A stretch of DNA of 64,000 nucleotides from Narcine bancroftii. Lineage: Eukaryota. Each line of letters opens with the position of its first letter. Positions within the stretch are counted from its first letter, which is position 1. Both the position numbers and the translations under genes were made by a program. Below the pieces are notes generated by a model. That model made no database searches. It was not told where the DNA came from and saw only the letters and a list, made by a program, of their open reading frames with translations. The stretch is taken from the NCBI RefSeq assembly GCF_036971445.1, contig NW_027211808.1:7812001-7876000 (forward strand). Direction: 5' to 3'. Below, piece after piece: positions 3,800 to 55,989 of the stretch.

Positions 3800-4119
3800 C
3801 TATAATGTGGCTGATGGTTCATTTGGCTCCTGATTCTGAGAGCTTCCTTGCGATTGATGACTTTCAGAGGACGAGGAGCATGTAGAAGACCTGATTTTGG
3901 TATTTGGCAACTTTTGGTCCTTTTTCCATTTCATTCGCCTGTTCTGGAACCATATTTTTATCTGTCGTTCTGACAGGCAAAGAGAATGGGCTATTTCCTC
4001 CCTGCGTCTCCGGGTTAGGTACCGATTAAAATGGAACTCCTTTTCCAGCTCTAGAACTTGCTGTTTCGTGTAAGCAGTGCGGGAGCGTTTTGGTTCCCCT
4101 CCTTTGTAATTAGGGTTCA
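3800..4119 (-). CDS. HOXB4: HoxB4 exon 2 (homeodomain)
   Basis: Acceptor ttcag|TG at 4120/4119; translates [78 protein letters not shown]; LPNTK is the group-4 signature; stop at 3800. Confidence 0.95.
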
Positions 4120-4316
4120 CTGAACAAAAAGCAACAACACAGAAATAACTGACTGAACACCACAAATCTTACAAGGAAAAGAGCTAGAACACTTAAAATA
4201 AGCATTAGCAAAAAAATTGTAAAACTTCACGACTATCATTAACCGCCGTTCAAAGGGACCTGAGCGCCTAGGACACAACACATCAAAGGAGCATGGCCAG
4301 AAGTGCAATTGTACTG

Positions 4317-4352
4317 CAATAAAAATTTATGGAGGCAGTCATTACTGACCTC
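4317..4352. promoter_or_regulatory. HB-1-like conserved intronic homeodomain-binding element of group-4 Hox genes
   Basis: caataaaaatttatggaggcagtcattactgacc in the HoxB4 intron: clustered TTTAT/ATTA motifs similar to the recalled HB-1 element. Confidence 0.6.
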
Positions 4353-4447
4353 CAGATAGGCGATCGTAAATCTAAAGAATAGCTATTTACAATGGGTGAA
4401 ATAGATTCTAGGCTTTCAGTGGTAAAAAGCCCAAGCAAGCGACTCAC

Positions 4448-4844
4448 CAGAGTTTATATGTAATTTCTTCATCCACGGATAAACCAAGGGCTCCTTAGAA
4501 CAAGGAGTGTTTTGGTTGCTGAAGTTCTGGCTGCAAGACACACTTGTGACCGAGATACACTGCTGGCCATGCTTGGCTAAATGCGTTTGAAGGCCGATCT
4601 GCGATTGTATGTGGCCCCTTGGCGCCACGATTTGCTCGCCCGAGCGCTGCAGCTTGCTGCAAGAGGAATAGAGCTGCTCGCTGTACGCTGACCGAGAGTA
4701 CATCGCCTCATGCTGGAACCCGGGCTCCCGTGCCCGGGTATAGTAATCCGGAGAATTGCTTGGTAGGTAATTGTTCTGTGAATATTCTTCACACGGTGGA
4801 AATTTAGGGTTCACATAGTTAGAGTTAATCAAAAACGAATTCAT
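4448..4844 (-). CDS. HOXB4: HoxB4 exon 1
   Basis: MNSFLINSNYVNPKFPPCEEYSQ N-terminus, hexapeptide VYPWMKK, donor G|GTGAGT at 4448/4447; 397 nt, phase 1, in frame with exon 2. Confidence 0.95.
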
Positions 4845-6169: not shown

Positions 6170-6260
6170 TTGTGTCGACTACATACTCCCCTAGATACGA
6201 ATTTGTGACCATAACTTTGTCAACACAAATTCGGATCTACAGGGTATATATAGAGGACAA
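6170..6260 (-). ncRNA. MIR10A: miR-10 precursor (miR-10a type)
   Basis: Mature UACCCUGUAGAUCCGAAUUUGUG at 6246..6224; 3p arm CAAAUUCGUAUCUAGGGGAGUA at 6205..6184; canonical position upstream of Hox4. Confidence 0.97.
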
Positions 6261-16929: not shown

Positions 16930-17180
16930 TTAGGTTTGGAAAGCGCTTGCTCCGGCCGTCATGGTCATACTTTTCAATTTGTTGTCCTTTTTCCATTTCA
17001 TCCGCCGATTCTGGAACCAAATCTTTATCTGTCGTTCAGAGAGGCACAAAGCTTGAGCAATCTCTATCCTCCGGCGTCGGGTTAGATATCTGTTGAAGTG
17101 GAACTCTTTTTCCAATTCCAAGGTCTGAAAACGAGTATAAGCAGTCCTGGCTCTTTTCCCGTCGGGTCCACCCATACCAT
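16930..17180 (-). CDS. HOXB5: HoxB5 exon 2 (homeodomain)
   Basis: Acceptor aacag|AT; [72 protein letters not shown]...AFQT*. Confidence 0.95.
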
Positions 17181-17943
17181 CTGTTAATAAATACGCATTT
17201 TTAAAAATCCATGACAAATTATCTATCCACGAAAATATTCATTTAAAAGAAAAGAAAAACAGTAGATCTTGGATGTTGCAGTATTTCCATCCTCGGGAGC
17301 TCTGGACATGCTATGTCAAAATTAAAAATATATGGTCTCCCGTTATCATTTTCCTTTTCATTGTCTGAGTAACCTGTGTCCTGGCAGCTGTGGTTCTATT
17401 TACAACACACACACACACACACAGAGGACACAGACTGACAGTCTTCCCGCCTTTCTTTCGCTCTATCATCCTTTCCCTTATACGCACGAAAAAACATACG
17501 TACAAACACACGTGCGCACACATTTTTAAAAAGTCAGAAATTGCAAATAGATTCGTGAAAAATGGTTTCCAACAACGATGATTTTTCAAGGTAATACACA
17601 GTTCTCTTTGTTATTATTGCTGATCGTGCAGTACAAGCCATAGCTTTATGTGCACCAATTTCTATATATCATAATATTACAGTTTAACCACAGTAAATAG
17701 TGTTTTAATTATTACTGAATTTTAATGATTGGCTAATGCGTAATATTTCATGCACATATAAAATTGTGGATTGTAAATTTCAATTCAATTTACAGATGAA
17801 GTTTAGTTAAGTTTCTGAAGAGCAATAATAATAAAAAATCCAGTTGTTTAAATTTTGTGTGATCCAGGTTGTATAACAGGTCGCCTTGAATTACCTGACT
17901 GCCGAGCAATATTTCGAGTACTAGACAGAAAATGAAAGTATAC

Positions 17944-18478
17944 CATGGGCAATGTGTAGCTTTCTCATCCAAGGAAAGATTTGTGGCTGCTGTTCTGGTG
18001 TTGTTGCTTGTGCTGGTTCTTGCTGTGCCCTGGGATGGTTGTTGTTGTTGGCTTGATTGCCTTCTTCAACATCCGAGGATGCTCCGGCCTCGTCCATTTC
18101 TGTAAAATTACTTGCTGAATTGGAGGAAGCAGTCGGGTCGGATGGGGAACCCTTGGTTCTGTGACTGTCCTTGCCAGAACAAGAAAGGGGTTCTGGAGAT
18201 GAGAGGGTGCAGCTCGCTGCTTGTCGGAACCTGGCTTCTGTAGCTGGAGGATACCTTCTGGAGTTTTCTGTATTAACCACTCCAAAGTGGTTAGATGAAG
18301 CTGAACGTGTGATGCTAAGGTCCATACCATTGAAGTTGTAGCCGTAAGTGCCTGAATGCATAGTGCCTGAATCCCTGTATGGTCCTTTCTCGGAGCTGCT
18401 CGACCCATAGATAAGTAACTGATAATCCGGGCCATTTTGATAGCGACCGGAGAATGAATTTACAAAGTAAGAGCTCAT
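17944..18478 (-). CDS. HOXB5: HoxB5 exon 1
   Basis: [22 protein letters not shown]...PQIFPWMRKLHIAH; donor G|GTATAC; 535 nt, phase 1. Confidence 0.95.
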
Positions 18479-20694: not shown

Positions 20695-21084
<390 letters not shown>

Positions 21085-21574
21085 TTATTGTTTATATGTT
21101 TTATGTTTTAAAGTAGCATGCTGGTTGACGACCATTGGTTCTGAATCACAAAATAATGATTTTTATTAATTGCTCAGCTTCATTCTGTTATAGTAAGATG
21201 CTCTAACCAATCGGCCTAGCAAATGGACATTATAATACTTAAGGAGAGAGGATGGAAAAGGAACTGATTGTGAGGCATCTTTACTGGAGGTTGATGTTCC
21301 ATATGTTTATATTCATATAGTAATATGTTTGTGCACATAAATATATTAATCTTATGAACCAGATGTTGAATTTTAATTAATTATTCAGAGAAGTGTCAAT
21401 TCATAATTTAAGGTGAAACCCGAGACAGTAAAATGTATATCGGTCTTGTACTCATTTCATGTTAAAAAAAATATATCTCTTGTAACAAAAAGGGTGATTG
21501 AACCAATTTCTTAATCATGTTCTTCCTGCCTTTATTCAATGTGTACGTTGAAAAGTATTAAAATGCAGACTTAC

Positions 21575-22007
21575 CACCACTAGAGTTCATTCTTTGCATC
21601 CAGGGATATACGGGGAGCGAATTCTTCTGATCATCCACTTCTTCGTATAAAATTCTGTTTTGCGTGCACTCCGATTTGCGTCGTTCGGGGTTGAAATGCG
21701 ATGGGTCTTCCAGTGAGTGGTATTTGGAGCTGGTGGCTGAGGCGCCGCAAGGAGGGTCTTTTTCACGATAAAAACTGGGCACACCATAATCGCAGGATGT
21801 CCGATTGCACCCATATGGCCCGTTGGTTTGTTGGTAGTAAGAGGGTGATGGGTAGCTTTTATCTTGCATGTCTGTAGCCCCATATGTGGCCGGATAGTGT
21901 CTTAAAGGGTCGTAACCGGAGGAATATAACGGAATCTGTCCGAGGAAAGACTCCTGACCACTAGCTAGAGTCACCGGGAAAGTGGAGTTAACAAAATACG
22001 AACTCAT
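21575..22007 (-). CDS. HOXB6: HoxB6 exon 1
   Basis: [32 protein letters not shown] (B6-type) ... PVYPWMQRMNS; donor G|GTAAGT; 433 nt, phase 1. Confidence 0.96.
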
Positions 22008-28302: not shown

Positions 28303-28310
28303 TAGGTAGT
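28303..28310 (-). promoter_or_regulatory. miR-196 8mer target site in HoxB7 3' UTR
   Basis: mRNA-sense ACUACCUA about 90 nt after the HoxB7 stop; complementary to the canonical miR-196 seed. Confidence 0.7.
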
Positions 28311-28396: not shown

Positions 28397-28837
<441 letters not shown>

Positions 28838-43705: not shown

Positions 43706-46700
43706 GGCTAAGTTTCTCCATAATTTTGATGTGCTTTTGCATTAATTGTTAAAAGCTACCTTCTCCCTCGTGAATTTTTTCTATCAATGTTGAAGGCTGT
43801 GTTTTCCAGGAGAATGAATTCCAGAAATGAAGTTATTTGGATCCTGAGGATGGAGAAAATTTCTGAATGGAAATTGCCAGATCAGGTTCGTCCCTATTCA
43901 CAGCTGAATGCTCAAAAAGGAGTGATATTCAAAGTCAAGTAGGAACTGTTGGCGGGAAATTGTTCGGCCATTTAACATAACATTGCCACTTTCATAATGT
44001 TATTCATTCCTGTGAAATAAAAATGTTTAACTTTGTTACACATCCATGACGAAAGCGAAATGGAATAACTAATCGCGGTTGGATTCAACTGGTAAAATGT
44101 CAAACCGCATGACATGTTACTCCAAATGGAAAAGGTCATGTGACTAATTGTTTATATGCACTGCAAAACAATTTTATCAAACTTTATTTGTAAAAACTCT
44201 CATTTGCATCATTTAATCTTGGCATAAAAGCAATTTAAATATACTTAAAACGTTTATTAAACGAAAAGCTTGCCGACGTTATAACACGCCACGAGGAAAT
44301 AAAAACCCAAATAATTGACCAAATCAATACAAAATGTAATCTCACCATCCTGGAATTTATATTTGAAAATATGCATCAATTTGAGTGTAACCTGGCGTCA
44401 TTTTCCCAGAGCCTTTGTCTTCAGTTTAAAAAAATAGATTTGCTTCTATGATACATTCAGAAGTTTTATAGAAAACCATAGAAAATGATTTGAGAATGTT
44501 TTCCTCTTAGCGACCGCAAAGTCCAATGATTGTTTCATAGAATGTAATTAAAATCCTGGCATTTAAGTAACGTGAATGTTGTCTTGTTTAAACATGAAAA
44601 TAAAAGTTTTATTAAAAAAAAAATCTTGCGCAACCAGATCCTGCGTGCCTGTAAATTAGGATAAAACTAGCTTAAAATTTCACATTAACATTATTTCGAT
44701 GAATGTTACATATTTTTTGAAATGAGTGGCTCGTTTTATCTGCAACCAATTTGATCAAAGCTAGAGAACAAAGTTAAAATTGTATTATCGTCAACACTTT
44801 ATCAGTTAAGTATAATTACTCAAATTCAGTTCATGAATGTTTATTCCTTCTTGTAGCGAGAGTGGGTTTCAAAATAATTGGGAAAAAAGTTTGCCAACGC
44901 TGTGATCATAGAAAATACTGTACATTAATATGCTGGATGAATTAAATCGGTGTCGCAGCGTCCATGAGACGTAAAAATATATAGCAACGTTTCAAGCTGA
45001 GCCCTTCTCCAAGATAGGCGTTGGTTGTATGTTTATTTTTTTTACCTCCTATTGGCGCCGCGTGACCTGCTGAGCTTTTCCAGCATTTTGTATATTTTCC
45101 AAAATAATTGGACTTGATCAAGTGCATAGCATGTGAGAATATTAACTAATTTATCTGTGAAAAATTAGATATTTTTCTTGTCATTCAGAGCATGGGAAGG
45201 TACGTTTTCTATTTGTAGATGCCTTTTATTATGAAAACGGTCTATCAGCCAGGCTATTGCTGTGAACGTGTTTAAAATCACCTTAAAAGAAAAAAAAAAG
45301 CCCACTTTCTTAAAATACTGGCTCAGTCAGAACTATGAAATTCTGGAAATATTATAATTAAATATACAAAACTTTTAAAAAAATCTCCGAATCGAATAGT
45401 CTTTCACTGCTTACATAATACAAAAATGGCGACTCTAAACAAACTGGTGACAAAGCATTTTTCTATCTTATGTGTCAAGCAAATATGTATGCTAATACTA
45501 AAGTTAGTAGATGAACAGAAGAAAATTTTAACTTCGGCAAAATTCGCATAATATCATGATTTGACTGAAAAAGGACAAATAAAATCATGACTCTATTTAC
45601 AGAGTAAATGCCCGTAGAACTGAACCATAATATATATGCGTCAATCAGGATAAATTAGTCGGCATTTTTGTATTTTCCAGATTGACAAGGTTGTATTTCA
45701 AAGTCTTGTAAGCCACATTTCCAACCGAAGTCATGACTTTCGGGGTCGCTGCAGGCGGTGAGATTGCAACATTGAACATTAAATTATCTCCGACTTCAAT
45801 GTATAAGAAATCAAGTCATCTGCTCGTAGCTATTGACACACTGTGCAACCTTATAAGTTTATGTGAAGTTTAAAATACCCGGCATCTTTAACAATAACGA
45901 GCTCCTAATGTCCTTTCCTGAGCGGTATATTTAAGAGTGCATTTAAACCAGGCAGATGAACAGAAAAACAAATTAAGCTAGTTTCTGATAAATTACATTC
46001 AACACATGAGTAAAAGCGATATAGCCCATCACTCGTGACGCATTCGGATGTGTCCACGCGAGCGTTTTAAAACGTAGCCGATTCTATTTTTTACAGACAC
46101 CAGATTGCGAACTGACCATTAAAATCCACGAATTGTAGACTATTTTGACAAACTTTCAAAATTAATTTTAATTAATCAAACAGCGACGTGACGAGGGATA
46201 TGCTAAACCTTCATGATCAGAAGGAAATGGTCCAGCCTGAGGCAATATTATTTCCTTAAATAATTGTTGCTTTCATTTAAAAAAAAACTGTATATACCCA
46301 CCTGGGGTAATATCGATCTGTCTTTCTTTATTCAGTATGATTTGAACAATTTTTATTGGTGATTGAGTAATATCCATCTAAGTACATGCTTTGTTAAATT
46401 GTATCAATGAAAAGTAAGTTGTTTTGACTGCATGACTCAAGGCATCGTCGGCTTATTAATTGTCGCATGCATCTGCTTTGTTTCGGAAACATATATTTAA
46501 ATCTGCTTTTGTTTAAATTATGATCAATTTTCACACACAGTTATTTGTATATCTGTGTCTTTACCCTTCCAATCTCCCATGTCTTATTGATCAATTTCCC
46601 CATTTAATCATTCTGCGAGGTTTAATTTAACAATTTAATTTTGTCATTATAACGCAATTCTAAACCTATATATTTAGCTCTGATTAAAATGTACAGGAAT

Positions 46701-46812
46701 AGAAGAGTTCAAATGTTGCCACGGGCTTACACATAAATTATGTTACAATATACCCAGAGGTTTAGTATAATACTAAACCGCATAAGGCATTATTAGTTCC
46801 AGTTCTGCCCCA

Positions 46813-46845
<33 letters not shown>

Positions 46846-46920
46846 GGACATATAATTTCCGCGTAGCAAATGCTAGAGATACCACATTTTAATTACAACC
46901 GAAAAGTTTGCGATGACTAT

Positions 46921-47004
46921 AACTGGAGTGATCAGGCAGTTCCTTGTCACTGCGATCAAATAGAAGCCCAAAAACATGAAACTACCAAAGTCACTCGACA
47001 GTTC
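46921..47004 (-). ncRNA. MIR196: miR-196 precursor with mutated mature arm
   Basis: Hairpin upstream of HoxB9. 5p arm UUGGUAGUUUCAUGUUUUUGGG (46988..46967) versus canonical UAGGUAGUUUCAUGUUGUUGGG; the 3p arm ...ACAAGGAACUGCCUGA is miR-196-3p-like; flanks aactg/gagtga pair. Confidence 0.9.
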
Positions 47005-48534
47005 AATTTTGCTGTCGAGACCGAATAAATGGAACAGTAAATTAATGACTAATGTTTCGAAAAGTTTTTTAACTGCATGAGATCGATTAAAAATCAAATG
47101 ACAACAATAAATATGTATTAGAACTGTGACCAGAAGATTATTAAATATCTCACAGTCAATGACTGCACAGAAACTCTTTAAACTTATAATTATTCCGTAC
47201 TATTTTGATGTTGCTATGTCCCCTTCAATAGTTAAAAGAAGTAGCCACTAACTTCACCATACGGTTTCAATGCCGCGGGGATGGATCACAATGTTGCTTT
47301 ACGTCTCGTCGCTGAACTGTTGTATCAACAAATTTGGAAATGTTAACCATTTTTTAAAACAAGTCAACGTCTCTGTAACCAGCTGGCAGAGTACAGTTAA
47401 CGTGACACCAATAAATTTCCATTTCACTGTTTCCCAAAATCTTGAGAGCCAAGTTAGCGAGGTTTTAAAGAAAAGAGTGGCTATTTTCCTTATCTCAAAG
47501 CTATGTCTTGCGGGATCAAACTGCCCAAGCTGCCCAAGTCCATCAAGAACTACTGGACAGCAACTTGCTAAACACATCTAACAGTCATAAAACTTTACAA
47601 AAGCAGACGTGTTCGAACGTGGAGCATCGTCGGTACGCACAGTCAGATTACAACCTTCTCTATGGTATTTAAATCACCAACACTGGATACCAAATACATC
47701 TGAAAATGCAAGCGGCTCCTTTAGGGCGTGTAAAATCGGGATTTTCTGATTTTTCTTTCGATTAACTACCAAGTTGCCCATTTCAGGTCAATTTCACAGA
47801 TTCACAATCAGCCAAGAACCGTGCATGCTATACTCGAGCCAAACTTCAAGGGAGAGGAGTGATGGGTAAATAGCTTCAATAAAGTTAAATAGATTTAGAA
47901 ATGTTGAATAACAATATAAATAGAAACTACACAAAACCGGGAAGAACACAACGTTATCTTTTATTTGCGTTTTGATATTGACCTGCAACATGGTCTAGTG
48001 AATTATGCAAATGGTTGAAGCCGTGAAATAAACAGAAATGCTCTATGAAGTCGTCCACACTTGTTGACCAACACAAAACAAAAATACTTCAACAAGGTTA
48101 TATTTTCATTTTTTTAAAATATTACCAGTTCTTTTCGACTTTCTCGCCTACAAGGACATGCTGTAGTGGATTCCACGATAATAATCTTTGGCATAATTTT
48201 TTTCCTTACGTTATTTAAAAACAAATATTACATTTTAATCCAACGTCAAACATACCGTAACGGATAAAACTCCATCGCATGAAAACTAATTGAGACGACG
48301 GATCGTTATTAATGTCAGACATTTTGATGAGCATTTAAAATACATTTATTTCTTTGCATAAACGCAGTTTAAGCATAATGTTCACCATAGGAGTAAGAGG
48401 CAGAATCGACACCGATCGTATGTTCTATTCTGAACTATGATCTTTTGCTGTATGGTCACATTATATTCAAAGGAAATGCAGATCCTTCAAAGGCTATTGC
48501 TTTCTAATGCAATTGTGTGTACAATTTAATTTCC

Positions 48535-51500
48535 TTTTTTTAAAACTTTATTTATTTGAGGAATAATTAATAGCAATACAAAATACATTCCATAAAGAAA
48601 ATGTTATATATATGTATATAAAAAAAATCCACCCCCCGCCCCCCACCCATCAGCCAACTCTCTTAAGGAGAGCTAAAAATACATAAACAGAAACTAAAAG
48701 TAAATAATAAATCAAAATATATCTAAATATGGTAACCACTTATTTAAAAAAAAGAATAATTATCATGTAAATTTTTCCATAACAATACGAGCTTTCAATT
48801 AATTATGGCTTTGCAGTATATTAATCACTATATTATTTTTCACATATTTGCTACACATTTTTGAACTACAGACAATGCTAAATATATAAATGCAATTTGA
48901 AATTTATCCAACCCTAATCCCCTTAAAGGAATCATAAAACCCATTAAAAATAGATGGATGTAATGGTAACTTAAAATTATATAATTTTTCTAAAATTAAC
49001 TTAATTTCATCCCAGAATTATTGTACATGCACACAAGACCAAACAGCATGTAAAAAAGTTTCAGTACAAACACAACATCTAAAACAAGAATGCAAATTAC
49101 TAAAATCATATTTTTTCAATTCTTCTGGTGTTAAATACAACTGATGTAGAAAATTATAATTAACCTTTCCATACCACACATTCATCAATTTAGTAACACT
49201 ATCATGACACGTATCTGCCCAGTAATCTTCAGGCAAAACAGAAGCTAAATCATTTTCCCATTTAACCTTAGACTTCTCCCATTCTGGTTTATCCATATTG
49301 TCTTGTAATACTTGGTACATAAAATAAATATAAACCATTTTTGGTATAGAAGAAATCAAAGACTCGAATACCATTAATACAGGTAAAATAATTTCTCTAC
49401 TATACATATTTTTCACCAAAGATGGAAGTTGATAATTAATAATTAAAGAACTTTCAGCAATATCAAAATGCACATTCAATTGATTGAAAGAAATAAACTG
49501 TCCTTCTACAAAACAATCCTATAATGTTTTTATACCCTTAAAATCACAAATCTTTAAATGACTATTAAACATTGAAAATAAATAAGCTGATTATTATATA
49601 ATGGAGTTAAAATTGACTATTTATCTTTTGATTCTAAAATCTTATTATTTTAATCCATAATTTTAATAAATGTTTTAGTATCGACATATATTCCTTCAAC
49701 AAATTTACATCCATCGAAATATAAATCGATACACCTCAACTTCAGAAATACAGGCCATCACAACTTTAGCCCAATTCGTGGGTTGGTCCAAATCCATCAA
49801 TCTACTAATAAATTTCAACTGGGCTGCTTCATAATAATTTTGAAAATGAGGTAATTGAAGCCCACCTAGTTCATACTTCCAAGTAGGTTTATTTAATGCT
49901 ATCCATGGTAGTTTACCTTTCCATAAAAATTCTCCCATAACTTTATTTAAATCCTGAAAGAAACTCTTTGAAAGAGAACACTGTATTGATTGAAATAAAT
50001 ATTGAATACGAGGAAAATATTCATCTTAATACTATTAACTCAACCAATTAAAGTTAATGGAAGATCAACTTAATTAAATCTGCTTTAATCTTTTTTTAAA
50101 TAATGGAACATAATTTAACGTATAAAGATTGATACTCAGTATTTACAATTATTCCTAAATATTTAATTTTATCTGACCATTTCAATTTTATAATATTTTT
50201 ATACTCTGAATAACCTCCTTCTTTGACTGGTAAAATTTCACTCTTATCCCAGCCAACTTTATATCCAGATAATGTTCCATATTGTAATAAACATTCCCGT
50301 AAATGTGGCAATGATTTTTCTGGGTTTGTTAAATATATCAAAACATCATCTGCAAACAAATTAATCTTATACTCATCATCCATAATTCTCATCCCTCTTA
50401 TCTGTTCATTCTGCCTTATTGTTTGAGCTAATGGTTCAATAGTCAATGCAAACAGAGCTGGTGACAATGGGCAACCTTGTTGAGTTGAATGCATCAATTT
50501 AAACAATGATGAAACTTTACCAATTGTCATCACCCTAGCAGTTGGATTCGTATATAAAGCTTTTACCCAACCAATAAAAAAGGGACAAATTTAAACTTCT
50601 TCAATACTTTAAATAAAAATTCCCATTTGACCCTATCAAAGGCTTTTTCCACATCAAGCACAACCACTTGGTGGGGCTGCTGTCAATATGCATTGATCAA
50701 ACGAATCAATTGAAGAATATTATCTGAAGCATTTGTATTTTTAATAAAACCTGTTTGTTCAACATGCATCAATTTAGGTAAATACTTAGCAAGTCGATTT
50801 GCCAACACTTTTGCTATTATTTTATAATAAATATTCAATAATGTAATAGGTCTATACAAAGACACTTTCAATGGGTCTCTATCTTTTTTTGGGATTACTG
50901 TAATTAAAGCACTAGAGCAAGATTCTGGTAACTCATACTGTTCAGTCATTTGCTGTAATACCTCCCCAAACACCAAACATAAATCTTCATAAAAAGCTTT
51001 ATAAAATTCCACCGAAATCCCATCATTGCCTGGTGACTTCCCATTGGGCATTTCCAACATAGTCACCTTAATCTCTAATCTTGTAAATGGAGCTTCCAGA
51101 TCCATAACATCCTCCACTTTTAATGGTGATAACATTAACTTAGATAAATAAGAATCAATAGAACTACTATCCTGCTTCCCCCTCCCCCACCCAGAAGTAT
51201 TTTTTTAAATAAAATGAATAAAACTGATCATTAATTTCCTCTGGTTTATAGGTAACCATTGAATTATTTTTTACAGCATTAATAATCTGTGAAACCTGCT
51301 CCTTCTTTAACTGCCATGCAAATACTTTATGTGCCCTTTCACCCAACTCATAATAATGCTGCTTAGATCAATTAATTAAACATTCAAATTGATAAGTCTG
51401 CAACATATTATAATGCAATTTCAATTTAGGAAAAGCTACTTAAAAAAAATTGCTGTCACTTCCTTCTGAAATTCCTTCTCCAAGTCATCAATTTGCTTTT

Positions 51501-54201
51501 CAAATTCAAAACTTTCAGCTATATACTGTTTCTTAACTTTAGTGGTATAACTAATAATCTGCCCTCTTAAATAAGCTTTTAATGCATCCCATAACCCAAA
51601 ATGATTTTTTTCTGAATTAGCATTTTCAAACAAAAAAATGTAATCTGTGTTTTAACAAAAATAACAAACTCTGGTATTTCAAGAACACTGTGTTAAATTT
51701 CCATCTATAAGATGAAAGTACCACTGCTGAACTTACATAAAAAAATAATAGAGTGATCTGATATAACCCTGCTTTTATATTCTGCCGGTGATACCCTTCC
51801 TTGTAAATGTGCCAATACTAAAAAAAAATCTATTCTGGATCATGAATCAAGTTGAGATGAATAAAAAGATTTATCCTTTTCTGTAGGATTAACCCTTCTC
51901 CAAATATCCACCAAATTTAAATCCTTCATCAAGGCTCCAATTTGTATCACCATCTTTGATTTCTTTATACTTTTTGGGCATCTGTCCAACAAAGGATCTA
52001 AGACCCTATTAAAATCTCCCCCAACTAAAATATTTTCATTAGCGGTTTAATATTAAAAAAGCATCTGGAATAAAACACTCATCATCCACATTAGGTGCAT
52101 GAATATTAAGTAAAGTCCAAAATTCAGTAAAAATTTTACATTTCACCTTTAATACTCTTCCAGCATTCCCTTCCATAGTTTTCAACTCAAAAGACAAATT
52201 TTTATGAATTAGAATTGCTACACCCCTTGCCTTAGAATTAAATGAAGACAAAACACATGTCCAACCCAATCCCTCTTCAATTTCAAATGTTCTTTTTCAG
52301 TCAAATGTCTTTGTTGTAAAATGACAATATCTATTTTATTTTCTTGATATAAGCCAAAACTCACTTTCACTTAATCAGATTATTTAACCCCTGAACATTA
52401 AAATTTGCAAATTTAAAATTAGACATATTTACAAACTAACAATATAATCACTTACTACAAAATATTGCTCCCCTTCTAATAAATGAAAACCACTCTCCCT
52501 CATCTAAATATTTTTTTTAAAAGAAAATGTATATAGAAAAAAATTTAATTATCCCGCCCCCCCAAAAAAACACTACCCAAAGGTAGTAATGCCCTAAAAA
52601 TCTGGATGTTTTAAACCCCACTAGTGGCAGACGTCTATCAAAGGTTTCAGTGCCTTCCACCCTCCCCCCCCAGCCAGAATTACATCATTCACATCAATAC
52701 AATCCAGTACTGTAAATATATTCAACCCAGTGTCTCCATTCCCAATGATTGTTCTGGATCTTCATTGTCAATAAGACTTTGTGTTAAAACCTCTTTCTTC
52801 CCATTTTCCACTTTTCCCATTCTTCCCATACTGCCCATTTCCATTTCCATTTGTCCCTTTTTAGGTGATGGTGGTGAAACTCTTCCATGTCCTCATAAAT
52901 CCCGAAATAAATTAGCAAAAATTAATGCATCATGATCATTCTCAAAAAACTGAGATTGAAAGTTACCATAAAAGACCTTTAACACAGCAGGGTATCGAAA
53001 ATCAAATTTATAACACTTCCGCCTAATTAAATTTTCATAGTTGCCTAATAATTTCTTGACTCAAATCTGCGTTAAAAATTACTCTGTTATTTTGAGTCAT
53101 CATTGGAGATTGACTTTGTCGTCCCTTCTGTACCACCAACCGTAGTATCATTTCTCTGTCTTGATAGTTCAGGCACCGAACTAACACTGCTTGTGGTGGT
53201 GTCCAGGTAACAGTTTCTTTTATATTGCTCTATGTGCCTTCTCCAATAATAAACCTTCTGAAAAAAACGCTTTGCCCAACACATCGGGAATCCAACTCTT
53301 GAAAAATTTTATTGGATCAGACCCTTCAATGTCTTCTGGGACACCCACAATTTTCACATTGTTTCTCTGACTTTGATTTTCCAATGAATCAATTTTTTTC
53401 AATAAATCTTTCTACTGGATTCCTCAGTCCACAAACAAATCTTCCACTTTCTCTATTTTTCCTTATTATGTCCATCTTGAATTTTACATTCAGAAAAAGC
53501 TGTTTCAGTTTTTGTAACATTTTCTTGAATTGTATCCACTGATTTAATACATTTACTGACATCCCTCTTAATTGTAGATATATCTTCAGACATATTAGAT
53601 ATTTTGGTTGTCACATCTAAATATCCTTGAGTCATTTGTTTAGACATATTATCCATATGATCGGCAATCCCTTCCAAGACTGTACAGACTCCATTCCAGG
53701 TTCCAATTCCACATTTTGAGGCCTACCTTCTATAGACTCCACCTCCAATTGTTCCTGTGAACTGCTCCTTAAAGGAAAGTCTTCTTTTTCTTCCAACATT
53801 GTCGGACCTTTCCAGGTATGGCTGCTGGTCTGCACTGAAGATAGTGGCATTCCGACCTTGTCGGGATTTCACCGCTCGGGCCCCTCACAGCCCACATGTG
53901 GTCCAGTGATTCATAGTCTCTGGAGTCATCGCACATGCCCGGCAAGGCCGGGGTTAGTGCAGAGGCAGCTTCCAACACCATTCTGCACATCCCCGGTTCA
54001 CCCGACAGCAGCCCGGGCTCAAGGGCCCTTCTCTCAGCTGGGTTGCCTGCGTGTGTGACATTGTGAATCCGTGGATGGACTCCAGCCGTGCCTGTCAACA
54101 TGCTGGTGCCATCTTGTGGAGACAAGGTTACCGCCTGTGTAGTACAGCCTGGCAGGAGTTCTCTGTAAAAATTGCCCTCTATGCCATCTTGCCATGTCCC
54201 C
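48535..54201 (-). mobile_element. Full-length, degenerate L1-clade LINE (~5.7 kb)
   Basis: ORF1 fragments (LENQSQRNNVKIVGVPE, LEKAHR); ORF2 from ATG ~52426 with APE endonuclease (KARGVAILI, LLNIHAPN) and RT (KSPGNDG, YRPITLLN, QQGCPLSPALF, LFADD); AATAAA and A-tail at ~48557..48535; 15-bp TSD tacaatt(t/a)aatttcc at 48520..48534 and 54202..54216; many frameshifts and stops. Confidence 0.95.
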
Positions 54202-54694
54202 TACAATTAAATTTCCCAATGTAATTAATCTGCAAATGCAATTCTGATTTCATTTAAATTTATTAGTTTCTCCAGTAACATTATCTTTGGATGAGATGCT
54301 TTATTCCAGATTCATGGGGTGGAGCAGACTGAAAGTAGGGGGGAACGGGAGGGACAGTGTAGGTCAACAGCAGTTTGCAATAAACATTAAATTAATAGCT
54401 ACGTAAGTCTTTACTAATTTTTCTCTGTTTAGGGGTTGCGAGTCCATAAAATTATTCCTGAATAATTTTGGCTTCTTTAACTCAATGAAAGAAACATGGC
54501 CAGACAAAAATAAAAGGGATTGTGACTATTTAGTCCAATTTGGCTGCTTGCTCCTTTCGTTCTACTAATACAGTTTAAATTAATGTTTGCCTACTCCGCA
54601 AAATCCGATGTAATAGAAATGTCCAGATGTAATTTTTGAATTGCAATAATTTGTGGAATAACCTCTACATCATCCCAAAGTAATTTTATTTTTT

Positions 54695-55710: not shown

Positions 55711-55989
55711 TTAATGAAAAGGCACTGCACCTTTATCAGATGGGGAAAGTATTTCTCGAATCCTATGCTCTCGGCTCATCTTTTTCAGCTTCATTCTTCT
55801 GTTTTGAAACCAGATTTTGACCAGCCTGTCGGTTAGATTCACACTCCGACTGATCTACAGGCGGCGCTCTCGAGTCAAATACATGTTAAAGAGGAACTTC
55901 TTTTCCAGCTCCAGTGTCTGGTGCTTCGTGTACGGACAAAGTTTCTTCCTTCCTCCCTTTGCCGCTATCCAGTTTATTGTAATCGCTTT
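55711..55989 (-). pseudogene. HOXB10: HoxB10 homeobox exon, pseudogenised
   Basis: Acceptor (T)10ccgattgacag|; translation [73 protein letters not shown]...; group-10 signature with TAG at 55857..55855 plus R5L, E19K and Q44L. Confidence 0.92.

Follow-up and report, generated by a model that had tools for sequence, protein, structure and literature searches.

Few parts of jawed-vertebrate genomes are as constrained as the Hox clusters, and losses from them are mostly known from whole-genome duplications. The zebrafish HoxDb remnant left by such a duplication reportedly keeps only miR-10. Decay of this kind resembles the locus described here in its piecemeal loss of genes and in a miR-10 that outlasts its neighbours, and differs in that no genome duplication is involved. 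Transcription factors can also persist on a decaying chromosome, as described for dosage-sensitive developmental genes surviving on Y and W chromosomes (PMC7849413, PMC5880238); unlike in those cases, survivors and losses lie here within one ordered Hox cluster that includes microRNAs.

Hox clusters on sex chromosomes are known from elasmobranchs. HoxC was located on elasmobranch X chromosomes, and electric-ray chromosome 12, a candidate X, was reported to be fused with the same autosome as stingray X1 (Lee et al., 10.1101/2025.02.26.637739). According to the same source, the stingray neo-Y retains a few dozen genes, of which 18 derive from the X-fused autosome that is also part of electric-ray chromosome 12; its main text mentions neither HoxB nor microRNAs, and its Y gene table may list stingray HoxB. 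HoxB is present on X1 of the red stingray, and HoxB genes of the Atlantic stingray are found on two X1-unlocalised scaffolds (10.1101/2025.06.08.657570). That preprint, which mentions neither a Y chromosome nor Narcine, describes the co-location of HoxB and HoxC as unique to myliobatiforms. The locus studied here shares with the myliobatiform X1 a HoxB cluster that would be sex-linked by fusion and the presence of HoxB and HoxC on one chromosome; it differs in belonging to an electric ray and in being accompanied by a second, decaying HoxB cluster. In sharks, a Hox cluster likewise resides on sex chromosomes, HoxC having been placed on the X, the Y, and the pseudoautosomal region (10.1101/2025.02.26.637739, 10.1101/2025.03.13.642935). 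The shark cluster lies in a recombining region (10.1101/2025.03.13.642935), whereas the two HoxB copies reported here are ~10% apart and one of them is losing genes.

A related regulatory system is that of miR-196, which cleaves Hoxb8 mRNA (PMC3394115). In agreement with it, both electric-ray HoxB copies have miR-196 at the group 9-10 position and a near-perfect HoxB8 site; unlike in that system, one copy combines an arm mismatched at nt 2 and 17 with a hoxb8 pseudogene, the canonical pair being found on the partner. Degenerating Y chromosomes, the loss of Hox genes from redundant clusters, and Hox clusters on the elasmobranch X are already known kinds of events. Our literature searches yielded neither a Y-linked nor a duplicated HoxB cluster in rays, a point on which the stingray Y gene table may bear, nor an intact and a decaying HoxB pair outside genome duplication.

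Two HoxB clusters in the electric ray genome

The DNA analysed here, referred to as the window, comprises 64,000 nucleotides of the 10.0-Mb contig C26 of Narcine bancroftii; the partner HoxB cluster is located on the 103.2-Mb contig C24. Searches for homeodomains (49 matches, 150 of 165 candidates scored) and for Hox13 (4 of 8 candidates matched) revealed one cluster on contig C1, one on contig C9, and two on C24, of which that at 60.0-60.3 Mb is dispersed and that at 79.61-79.76 Mb complete; the latter has its copy on C26. From gene order and similarity we interpret the clusters, in the order given, as HoxA, HoxD, HoxC, and a pair of HoxB clusters, the HoxB assignment being backed by database names as well. 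A database protein named Narcine bancroftii has the same sequence as HoxB9 of the window, and the proteins of C26 and C24 are annotated publicly without comment. HoxB and HoxC hence share one contig, C24, in the electric ray. A teleost-type or polyploid duplicate was rejected as the source of the second HoxB cluster because HoxA, HoxC, and HoxD are each single among the candidates scored.

Table 1. Annotated elements of the C26 window (positions counted from its first letter)
Element	Position	Strand	Properties	Basis
hoxb4	3800..4844	-	open frame, homeodomain changes, dN/dS 0.68	
miR-10 precursor	6178..6253	-	one loop substitution (6212) vs C24, both arms unchanged	
hoxb5	16930..18478	-	open frame	
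hoxb6	20695..22007	-	open frame, dN/dS 0.17	
Canonical miR-196 8mer site	28303..28310	-	hoxb7 3' region, identical to C24 copy	
hoxb7	28397..30465	-	open frame, dN/dS 0.29	
Near-perfect miR-196 site	31639..31660	-	hoxb8 3' region, identical to C24 copy	
hoxb8 pseudogene	31985..33194	-	stops 33023, 32871, 32808; 1-nt deletion 32929; splice acceptor AG>GG	
hoxb9	41336..42742	-	open frame, fast evolving, dN/dS 0.68	
miR-196 precursor hairpin	46925..46997	-	HoxB-linked, decayed copy	Rfam RF00256 match and C24 alignment
miR-196 3p arm	46932..46950	-	A>G at 46942, 1-nt deletion at 46932	C24 comparison, fold
Predicted mature miR-196 5p arm	46967..46988	-	nt 1 = 46988	ends inferred by homology
LINE-like insertion	48524..54203	-	5680 nt, absent from C24, same sense as Hox genes	
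hoxb10 pseudogene exon 2	55711..55989	-	in-frame TAG in homeobox, 11-nt deletion	

All 11 Hox frames, including hoxb8, are open on C24, where miR-196 is canonical, whereas C26 retains 7 of 11 (b1, b3, b4, b5, b6, b7, and b9). The sequence-only reading had described hoxb8 of this cluster as apparently decayed, and the three stops, the deletion, and the lost splice acceptor listed in Table 1 agree with this. Elsewhere on C26, hoxb2 is broken by frameshifts and a homeobox deletion and hoxb13 by frameshifts; exon 1 of hoxb10 was not found in C26:7.712-7.976 Mb. For the open genes, pooled dS was 0.074 and dN/dS 0.36, compared to 0.086 and 0.51 for the broken ones. Among the open genes, b3, b5, b6, and b7 had dN/dS values of 0.17-0.29, and b4 and b9 of 0.68. 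At 23 of the 25 HoxB9 differences between the contigs the derived state is that of C26, and at 2 it is that of C24 (p 2e-5), as judged from an alignment of 12 of 24 retrieved proteins in which a few derived calls rest on one outgroup match. HoxB5 of C24 equals sawfish HoxB5 over 261 residues; that of C26 differs at 15. The dN/dS values below 1 and the single change in miR-10 suggest that selection still partly maintains miR-10 and the seven open Hox frames.

On C26 the cluster is 278 kb long, compared to 157 kb on C24. The intervals between b9 and b1 are similar in length on both, and the growth on C26 is located in the gap between b13 and b9 and in the flank. Homology extends past hoxb1, with ~340 kb of C24 corresponding to ~600 kb of C26, and C24 79.84-79.93 Mb is inverted relative to the cluster; no syntenic match was seen between 11 stretches at C26 8.07-8.38 Mb and C24 79.55-80.03 Mb. 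In an alignment of 79,924 columns, GC content was 38.7% on C24 and 36.7% on C26, gap runs numbered 526 on C26 vs 247 on C24, and sites with GC on C24 and AT on C26 (3625) outnumbered those of the opposite direction (2040). Divergence amounted to ~10% at non-coding and ~8% at synonymous sites. The LINE-like element of the window, which lies 1.5 kb upstream of the miR-196 hairpin, contains reverse-transcriptase fragments and is bounded by an A-rich end and a target-site-like duplication. Two more insertions specific to C26, of 1259 and 210 nt, are located between hoxb2 and hoxb1 (C26 7.782-7.784 Mb), and at least 60 kb of repeated sequence with 48% GC (7.916-7.976 Mb) occupies the gap between hoxb10 and hoxb13.

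Sequence and predicted fold of the miR-196 hairpin

The miR-196 hairpin of C26 is positioned between the Hox group 9 and 10 genes, on the same strand as these, and retains its mature arm on the 5p side. At the Rfam gathering threshold only mir-10 (6178-6253) was listed for the window and mir-196 was not, the score of 46925-46997 (minus strand) against RF00256 being 48.8 bits (E 5.9e-10) with a gathering score of 55.4. A genome search with the hairpin gave two matches, the window itself and a 93% identical C24 copy with a canonical arm, and a miR-196 family search gave four loci, one on C1, two on C24, and the one on C26. Three miR-196 genes with the canonical seed thus remain in the genome. 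The HoxC-linked copy (C24 60.25 Mb) has the canonical seed; at the slicing positions, mature nt 10-12, it departs from the other copies, and with 54 bits it falls just below the cut-off.

In the mature 5p arm of C26, U replaces A at nt 2 (46987) and G at nt 17 (46972) when compared with the Rfam consensus, the partner on C24, and the copies linked to HoxA and HoxC, as the sequence-only reading had stated. Since A2 and G17 are present in all three other miR-196 copies of the same genome, both changes are derived. Each of the two positions lies opposite a U of the 3p arm and is unpaired in the predicted fold, so that the earlier description of the changes as uncompensated also holds. Read contigs from three runs of one sample span 46856-47154 or further with no differing letter; they carry U and not the canonical A at 46987. 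The sample may be the source of the assembly DNA, and the runs are therefore not independent. No RNA sequencing data were listed for 44300-48300. Nucleotides 2-8 of the arm do not form the canonical seed and, by sequence comparison, the C26 miR-196 is a homolog by descent that lies outside the canonical seed family.

Inside the Rfam span the hairpin differs from its C24 partner by 5 substitutions and a 1-nt deletion. Beyond nt 2 and 17, the differences, which the sequence-only reading had not noted, are at 46961, 46957, and 46942 and in the deletion at 46932; another one lies just beyond the hairpin, at 46918. The deletion adjoins the predicted Drosha cut, where in the predicted fold a 1x1 mismatch of the lower stem becomes a bulge, and together with the nt 2 mismatch it leaves two isolated pairs at this site. 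The hairpin nevertheless still folds, with a predicted energy of -32.5 kcal/mol (z -5.67) compared to -36.0 kcal/mol (z -6.25) for the C24 hairpin. C26 also retains a CAUC motif, located 16-19 nt beyond the 3p arm on its downstream side; this motif has a role in miRNA processing. Approximately 70 nt downstream of the hairpin, a TA microsatellite (46810-46855) is ~20 nt longer than on C24.

Rate of change in miR-196 and its target sites

Non-coding 74-column windows of the C26/C24 alignment showed a median of 7 events, with at least 6 events in 594 of 924, and at least 2 events were found in 59% of 3264 22-column windows; as the background windows contain constrained elements and sum both lineages, these background rates are approximate. 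The homology to miR-196 is beyond chance, and the amount of change is not. Taken alone, the seed change is ordinary decay. By the same measure miR-10, with 1 change, falls into the lowest 4% of windows (at most 1 event in 33 of 924); the direct contrast of 1 change in miR-10 with 6 in miR-196 is weak (p 0.06).

As the sequence-only reading had stated, the altered seed has lost its full match to the HoxB7 and HoxB8 sites, and the predicted duplex with the HoxB8 site is weakened from -36.8 kcal/mol with the canonical to -28.3 kcal/mol with the variant arm. The earlier reading had gone further and suggested that regulator and target decayed together; in such a pairwise decay, the loss of HoxB8 would have freed miR-196 or the reverse. 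Both are indeed damaged on C26. However, hoxb2, hoxb10, and hoxb13 are broken alike, the intact hoxb7 retains its site, and both target sites are identical to those of C24. The unchanged HoxB8 site is weak evidence alone, the chance of 0 changes in 22 nt being 11-17%. In addition, microRNAs act in trans, and three canonical-seed copies and an intact HoxB8 are present elsewhere in the genome. The HoxB8 gene of C24 and the sites of HoxA, HoxC, and HoxD genes of groups 7, 8, and 9 still call for canonical miR-196: with genes named by their position, canonical sites were found behind those of groups 7 and 9 on C1 and behind those of group 8 on C24 and C9. Pairwise decay within the cluster is therefore scarcely probable. 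No canonical site was present in the 2 kb downstream of hoxb2 and hoxb10. The site behind the C9 group 8 gene (stretch L063:5881-5904) is near-perfect and has the same seed wobble as the HoxB8 site; the HoxC cluster has a related site behind its own group 8 gene.

A single seed change is enough to alter the targets of a microRNA, and the same substitution could have created a functional, re-targeted and possibly male-limited microRNA with a new seed. The well-folding hairpin and the retained CAUC motif would be expected in that case. The six changes occurred at the background rate and none is compensated, which argues against it, as do the disturbance of the stem at the predicted Drosha cut by both the nt 2 mismatch and the deletion, and the LINE-like element upstream of the hairpin. 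Nor did an enrichment of ACUACCA sites, which the sequence-only reading had named as a check, appear in the Hox regions searched: C24 and C26 each had 4 7mer-m8 sites in the cluster, 8mers numbered 3 on C24 and 1 on C26, and no new-seed site was present in four 10-kb stretches with target-rich HoxA, HoxC, and HoxD 3' regions. We regard re-targeting as very unlikely. The unchanged target sites, the lack of a gain in new-seed sites, and the background-level change together point to passive decay, and both pairwise decay with HoxB8 and re-targeting are disfavoured as unnecessary. On balance, the miR-196 changes probably represent background decay in a second, degenerating HoxB cluster on a contig that is likely Y-linked, the variant being a weakened or silent relic rather than a re-targeted microRNA.

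Relationship of C26 to the candidate X chromosome

C24 matches the published candidate X of Narcine bancroftii, electric-ray chromosome 12. C26 shows several features expected of a Y gametolog, namely a homologous partner on the candidate X, one-sided gene loss and excess of derived changes, an inversion, repeat gain, and AT drift. In the contig numbering it follows C24 and precedes the next large contig, a placement resembling that of an unplaced piece filed with C24. We therefore consider it likely that C26 contains the Y-linked (neo-Y) copy of HoxB.

The small size of C26 and its duplication of part of C24 might also be explained by an error-rich haplotig, the changes being an assembly artefact and not biological, and the reads that agree with C26 may come from the assembly source. 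The read contigs, however, agree with C26 at every letter and show clean bubbles where C24-type contigs join them, and dN/dS varies by gene and is below 1. The LINE-like element with its target-site-like duplication, the inversion, and the biased substitutions are likewise not of the kind that sequencing errors produce, and an artefact is extremely improbable. A read run from a second organism had C24 letters at 4 listed sites; it covers only 82 nt away from the hairpin and therefore provides no outgroup for the microRNA.

More weight has to be given to the alternative that C26 arose by segmental duplication of the HoxB region and is located on the X, elsewhere, or on a B chromosome, present in both sexes and decaying by redundancy. 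All C26/C24 homology shown consists of one block, which on C24 is confined to ~340 kb, and the searches, in which a small part of C26 was read, gave no gametolog from elsewhere on C24. No second copy of the zbtb39-like gene was found, the first look being the stricter one. Among 105 BTB matches (150 of 203 candidates scored) and 71 zf-C4 matches (150 of 154 scored) none was on C26, though C24 has four nuclear-receptor loci. C26 is also mostly satellite and transposon sequence in the stretches sampled: 9 of 17 stretches along the contig were covered to at least 90% by other sampled stretches, of the DNA searches with three other C26 stretches, those scored yielded dispersed repeats only, and the Pfam matches among 133 scanned reading frames of the 335 on C26 were limited to 2 transposases. 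Finally, in one sample and at one place (window 46400-47600) the read depth was 7.3-7.9 and 3.8-4.0 for C26-type and 2.0 for C24-type sequence, a contrast based on few molecules in which 2 is probably a floor and 11 vs 4 gives p 0.06. This thin read depth leans against a simple 1:1 ratio of X and Y, and the 2-4 times higher depth of the C26 type could be due to noise, amplification, or a duplicate in the diploid genome.

Against a segmental duplicate stands the location of the partner on a chromosome with a published XY signal. Published elasmobranch Y chromosomes are, like C26, gene-poor and repeat-rich scaffolds with few genes, and the inversion, the expansion, and the AT drift fit arrested recombination. 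Moreover, the low dN/dS of b3, b5, b6, and b7 suggests that the copy is still needed, as would be the case with a single X in males. We consequently judge a segmental duplicate rather unlikely, and the interpretation of the microRNA as a product of passive decay would remain unchanged under it.

Concerning the repeats of C26, a 46-bp AT-rich satellite fills one stretch, and three other stretches have the same GC content. A match between C26 8.40 Mb and C24 75.3 Mb was considered as a second gametolog and rejected, as it reflects a shared minisatellite; this repeat is amplified at C26 8.40-8.50 Mb and has a short relative at C24 75.32 Mb.

Proposed origin, age, and implications

If C26 is the Y-linked copy, the following course of events can be envisaged. 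A HoxB-bearing autosome would first have fused with the ancestral elasmobranch X, consistent with the joint presence of HoxB and HoxC on one contig and with the published fusion. Within the electric-ray lineage the two copies would then have ceased to exchange sequence, as suggested by the ~10% divergence, the inversion, and the residues shared by both, presumably owing to an arrest of recombination. One copy would subsequently have acquired the stops, frameshifts, deletions, transposons, and AT drift observed on C26. Its miR-196 may have lost constraint because the microRNA acts in trans and three canonical-seed copies remain, while miR-10 and the seven open Hox frames would have been partly retained by selection, in line with dN/dS values below 1 and the 1 miR-10 change. 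If still cut at the same place, the miR-196 product is predicted to pair with the old sites through an offset match (nt 3-8) that it retains, and would repress these weakly.

Fourteen HoxB9 residues are common to C24 and C26 and occur in none of 10 other elasmobranchs. The split of the two copies is therefore internal to the electric-ray lineage, younger than the myliobatiform neo-Y and separate from it. Among the HoxB9 changes on the C24 lineage, 2 of 16 followed the split (95% range 2-38%), and electric rays are separated from skates and sawfish by 209-212 million years (10.1101/2025.02.26.637739). From these values we estimate that C26 and C24 split ~25 million years ago, with a range of 3-80 million years, based on one gene and assuming a constant rate. 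For other rays, no small contig with a further HoxB9 or HoxB5 appeared among the cluster members listed (24 of 24 for HoxB9, 15 of 25 for HoxB5), in which several rays are unrepresented; one skate has two accessions for an identical HoxB5.

More tentatively, male electric rays could carry a Y-linked HoxB cluster in mid-decay that keeps b1, b3-b7, b9, and miR-10 and has lost b2, b8, b10, b13, and canonical miR-196, so that the sexes would have different Hox codes. Chromosome-wide dosage compensation was reported to be lacking in three elasmobranchs (Niwa et al., 10.1101/2025.03.13.642935), and the loss of Y copies would for this reason change the dose in males. If so, the lost genes would be present in one working dose in males and two in females, and males would possess divergent HoxB proteins, and perhaps a microRNA seed, of their own. 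The cluster would then constitute a natural deletion series ranking Hox genes and Hox microRNAs by dosage sensitivity. Comparing the decaying copy with the intact one reveals the sequence in which genes, microRNAs, and the compactness of the cluster fail: the b10-b13 gap and the flank have expanded, the b1-b9 core hardly at all, and miR-10 holds while miR-196 does not. Should C26 be the Y, it would supply the Y sequence still lacking for a species in which sex chromosomes are a recent proposal, as well as simple markers for sexing, and would date a young stratum apart from the stingray neo-Y. Sex-specific Hox dosage in axial, fin, and clasper patterning would also become testable.

Two minor observations concern homeodomain residues. 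Both electric-ray HoxB9 copies have exchanges of N to S and M to L in the homeodomain (window 41336-41577) that are absent in the 10 other elasmobranchs. HoxB2 of C24 (79.754 Mb) has E at a homeodomain position where HoxB1, HoxB3, and HoxB4 of C24 have V, and the same V-to-E exchange is found in HoxB4 of C26 (3800-4119).
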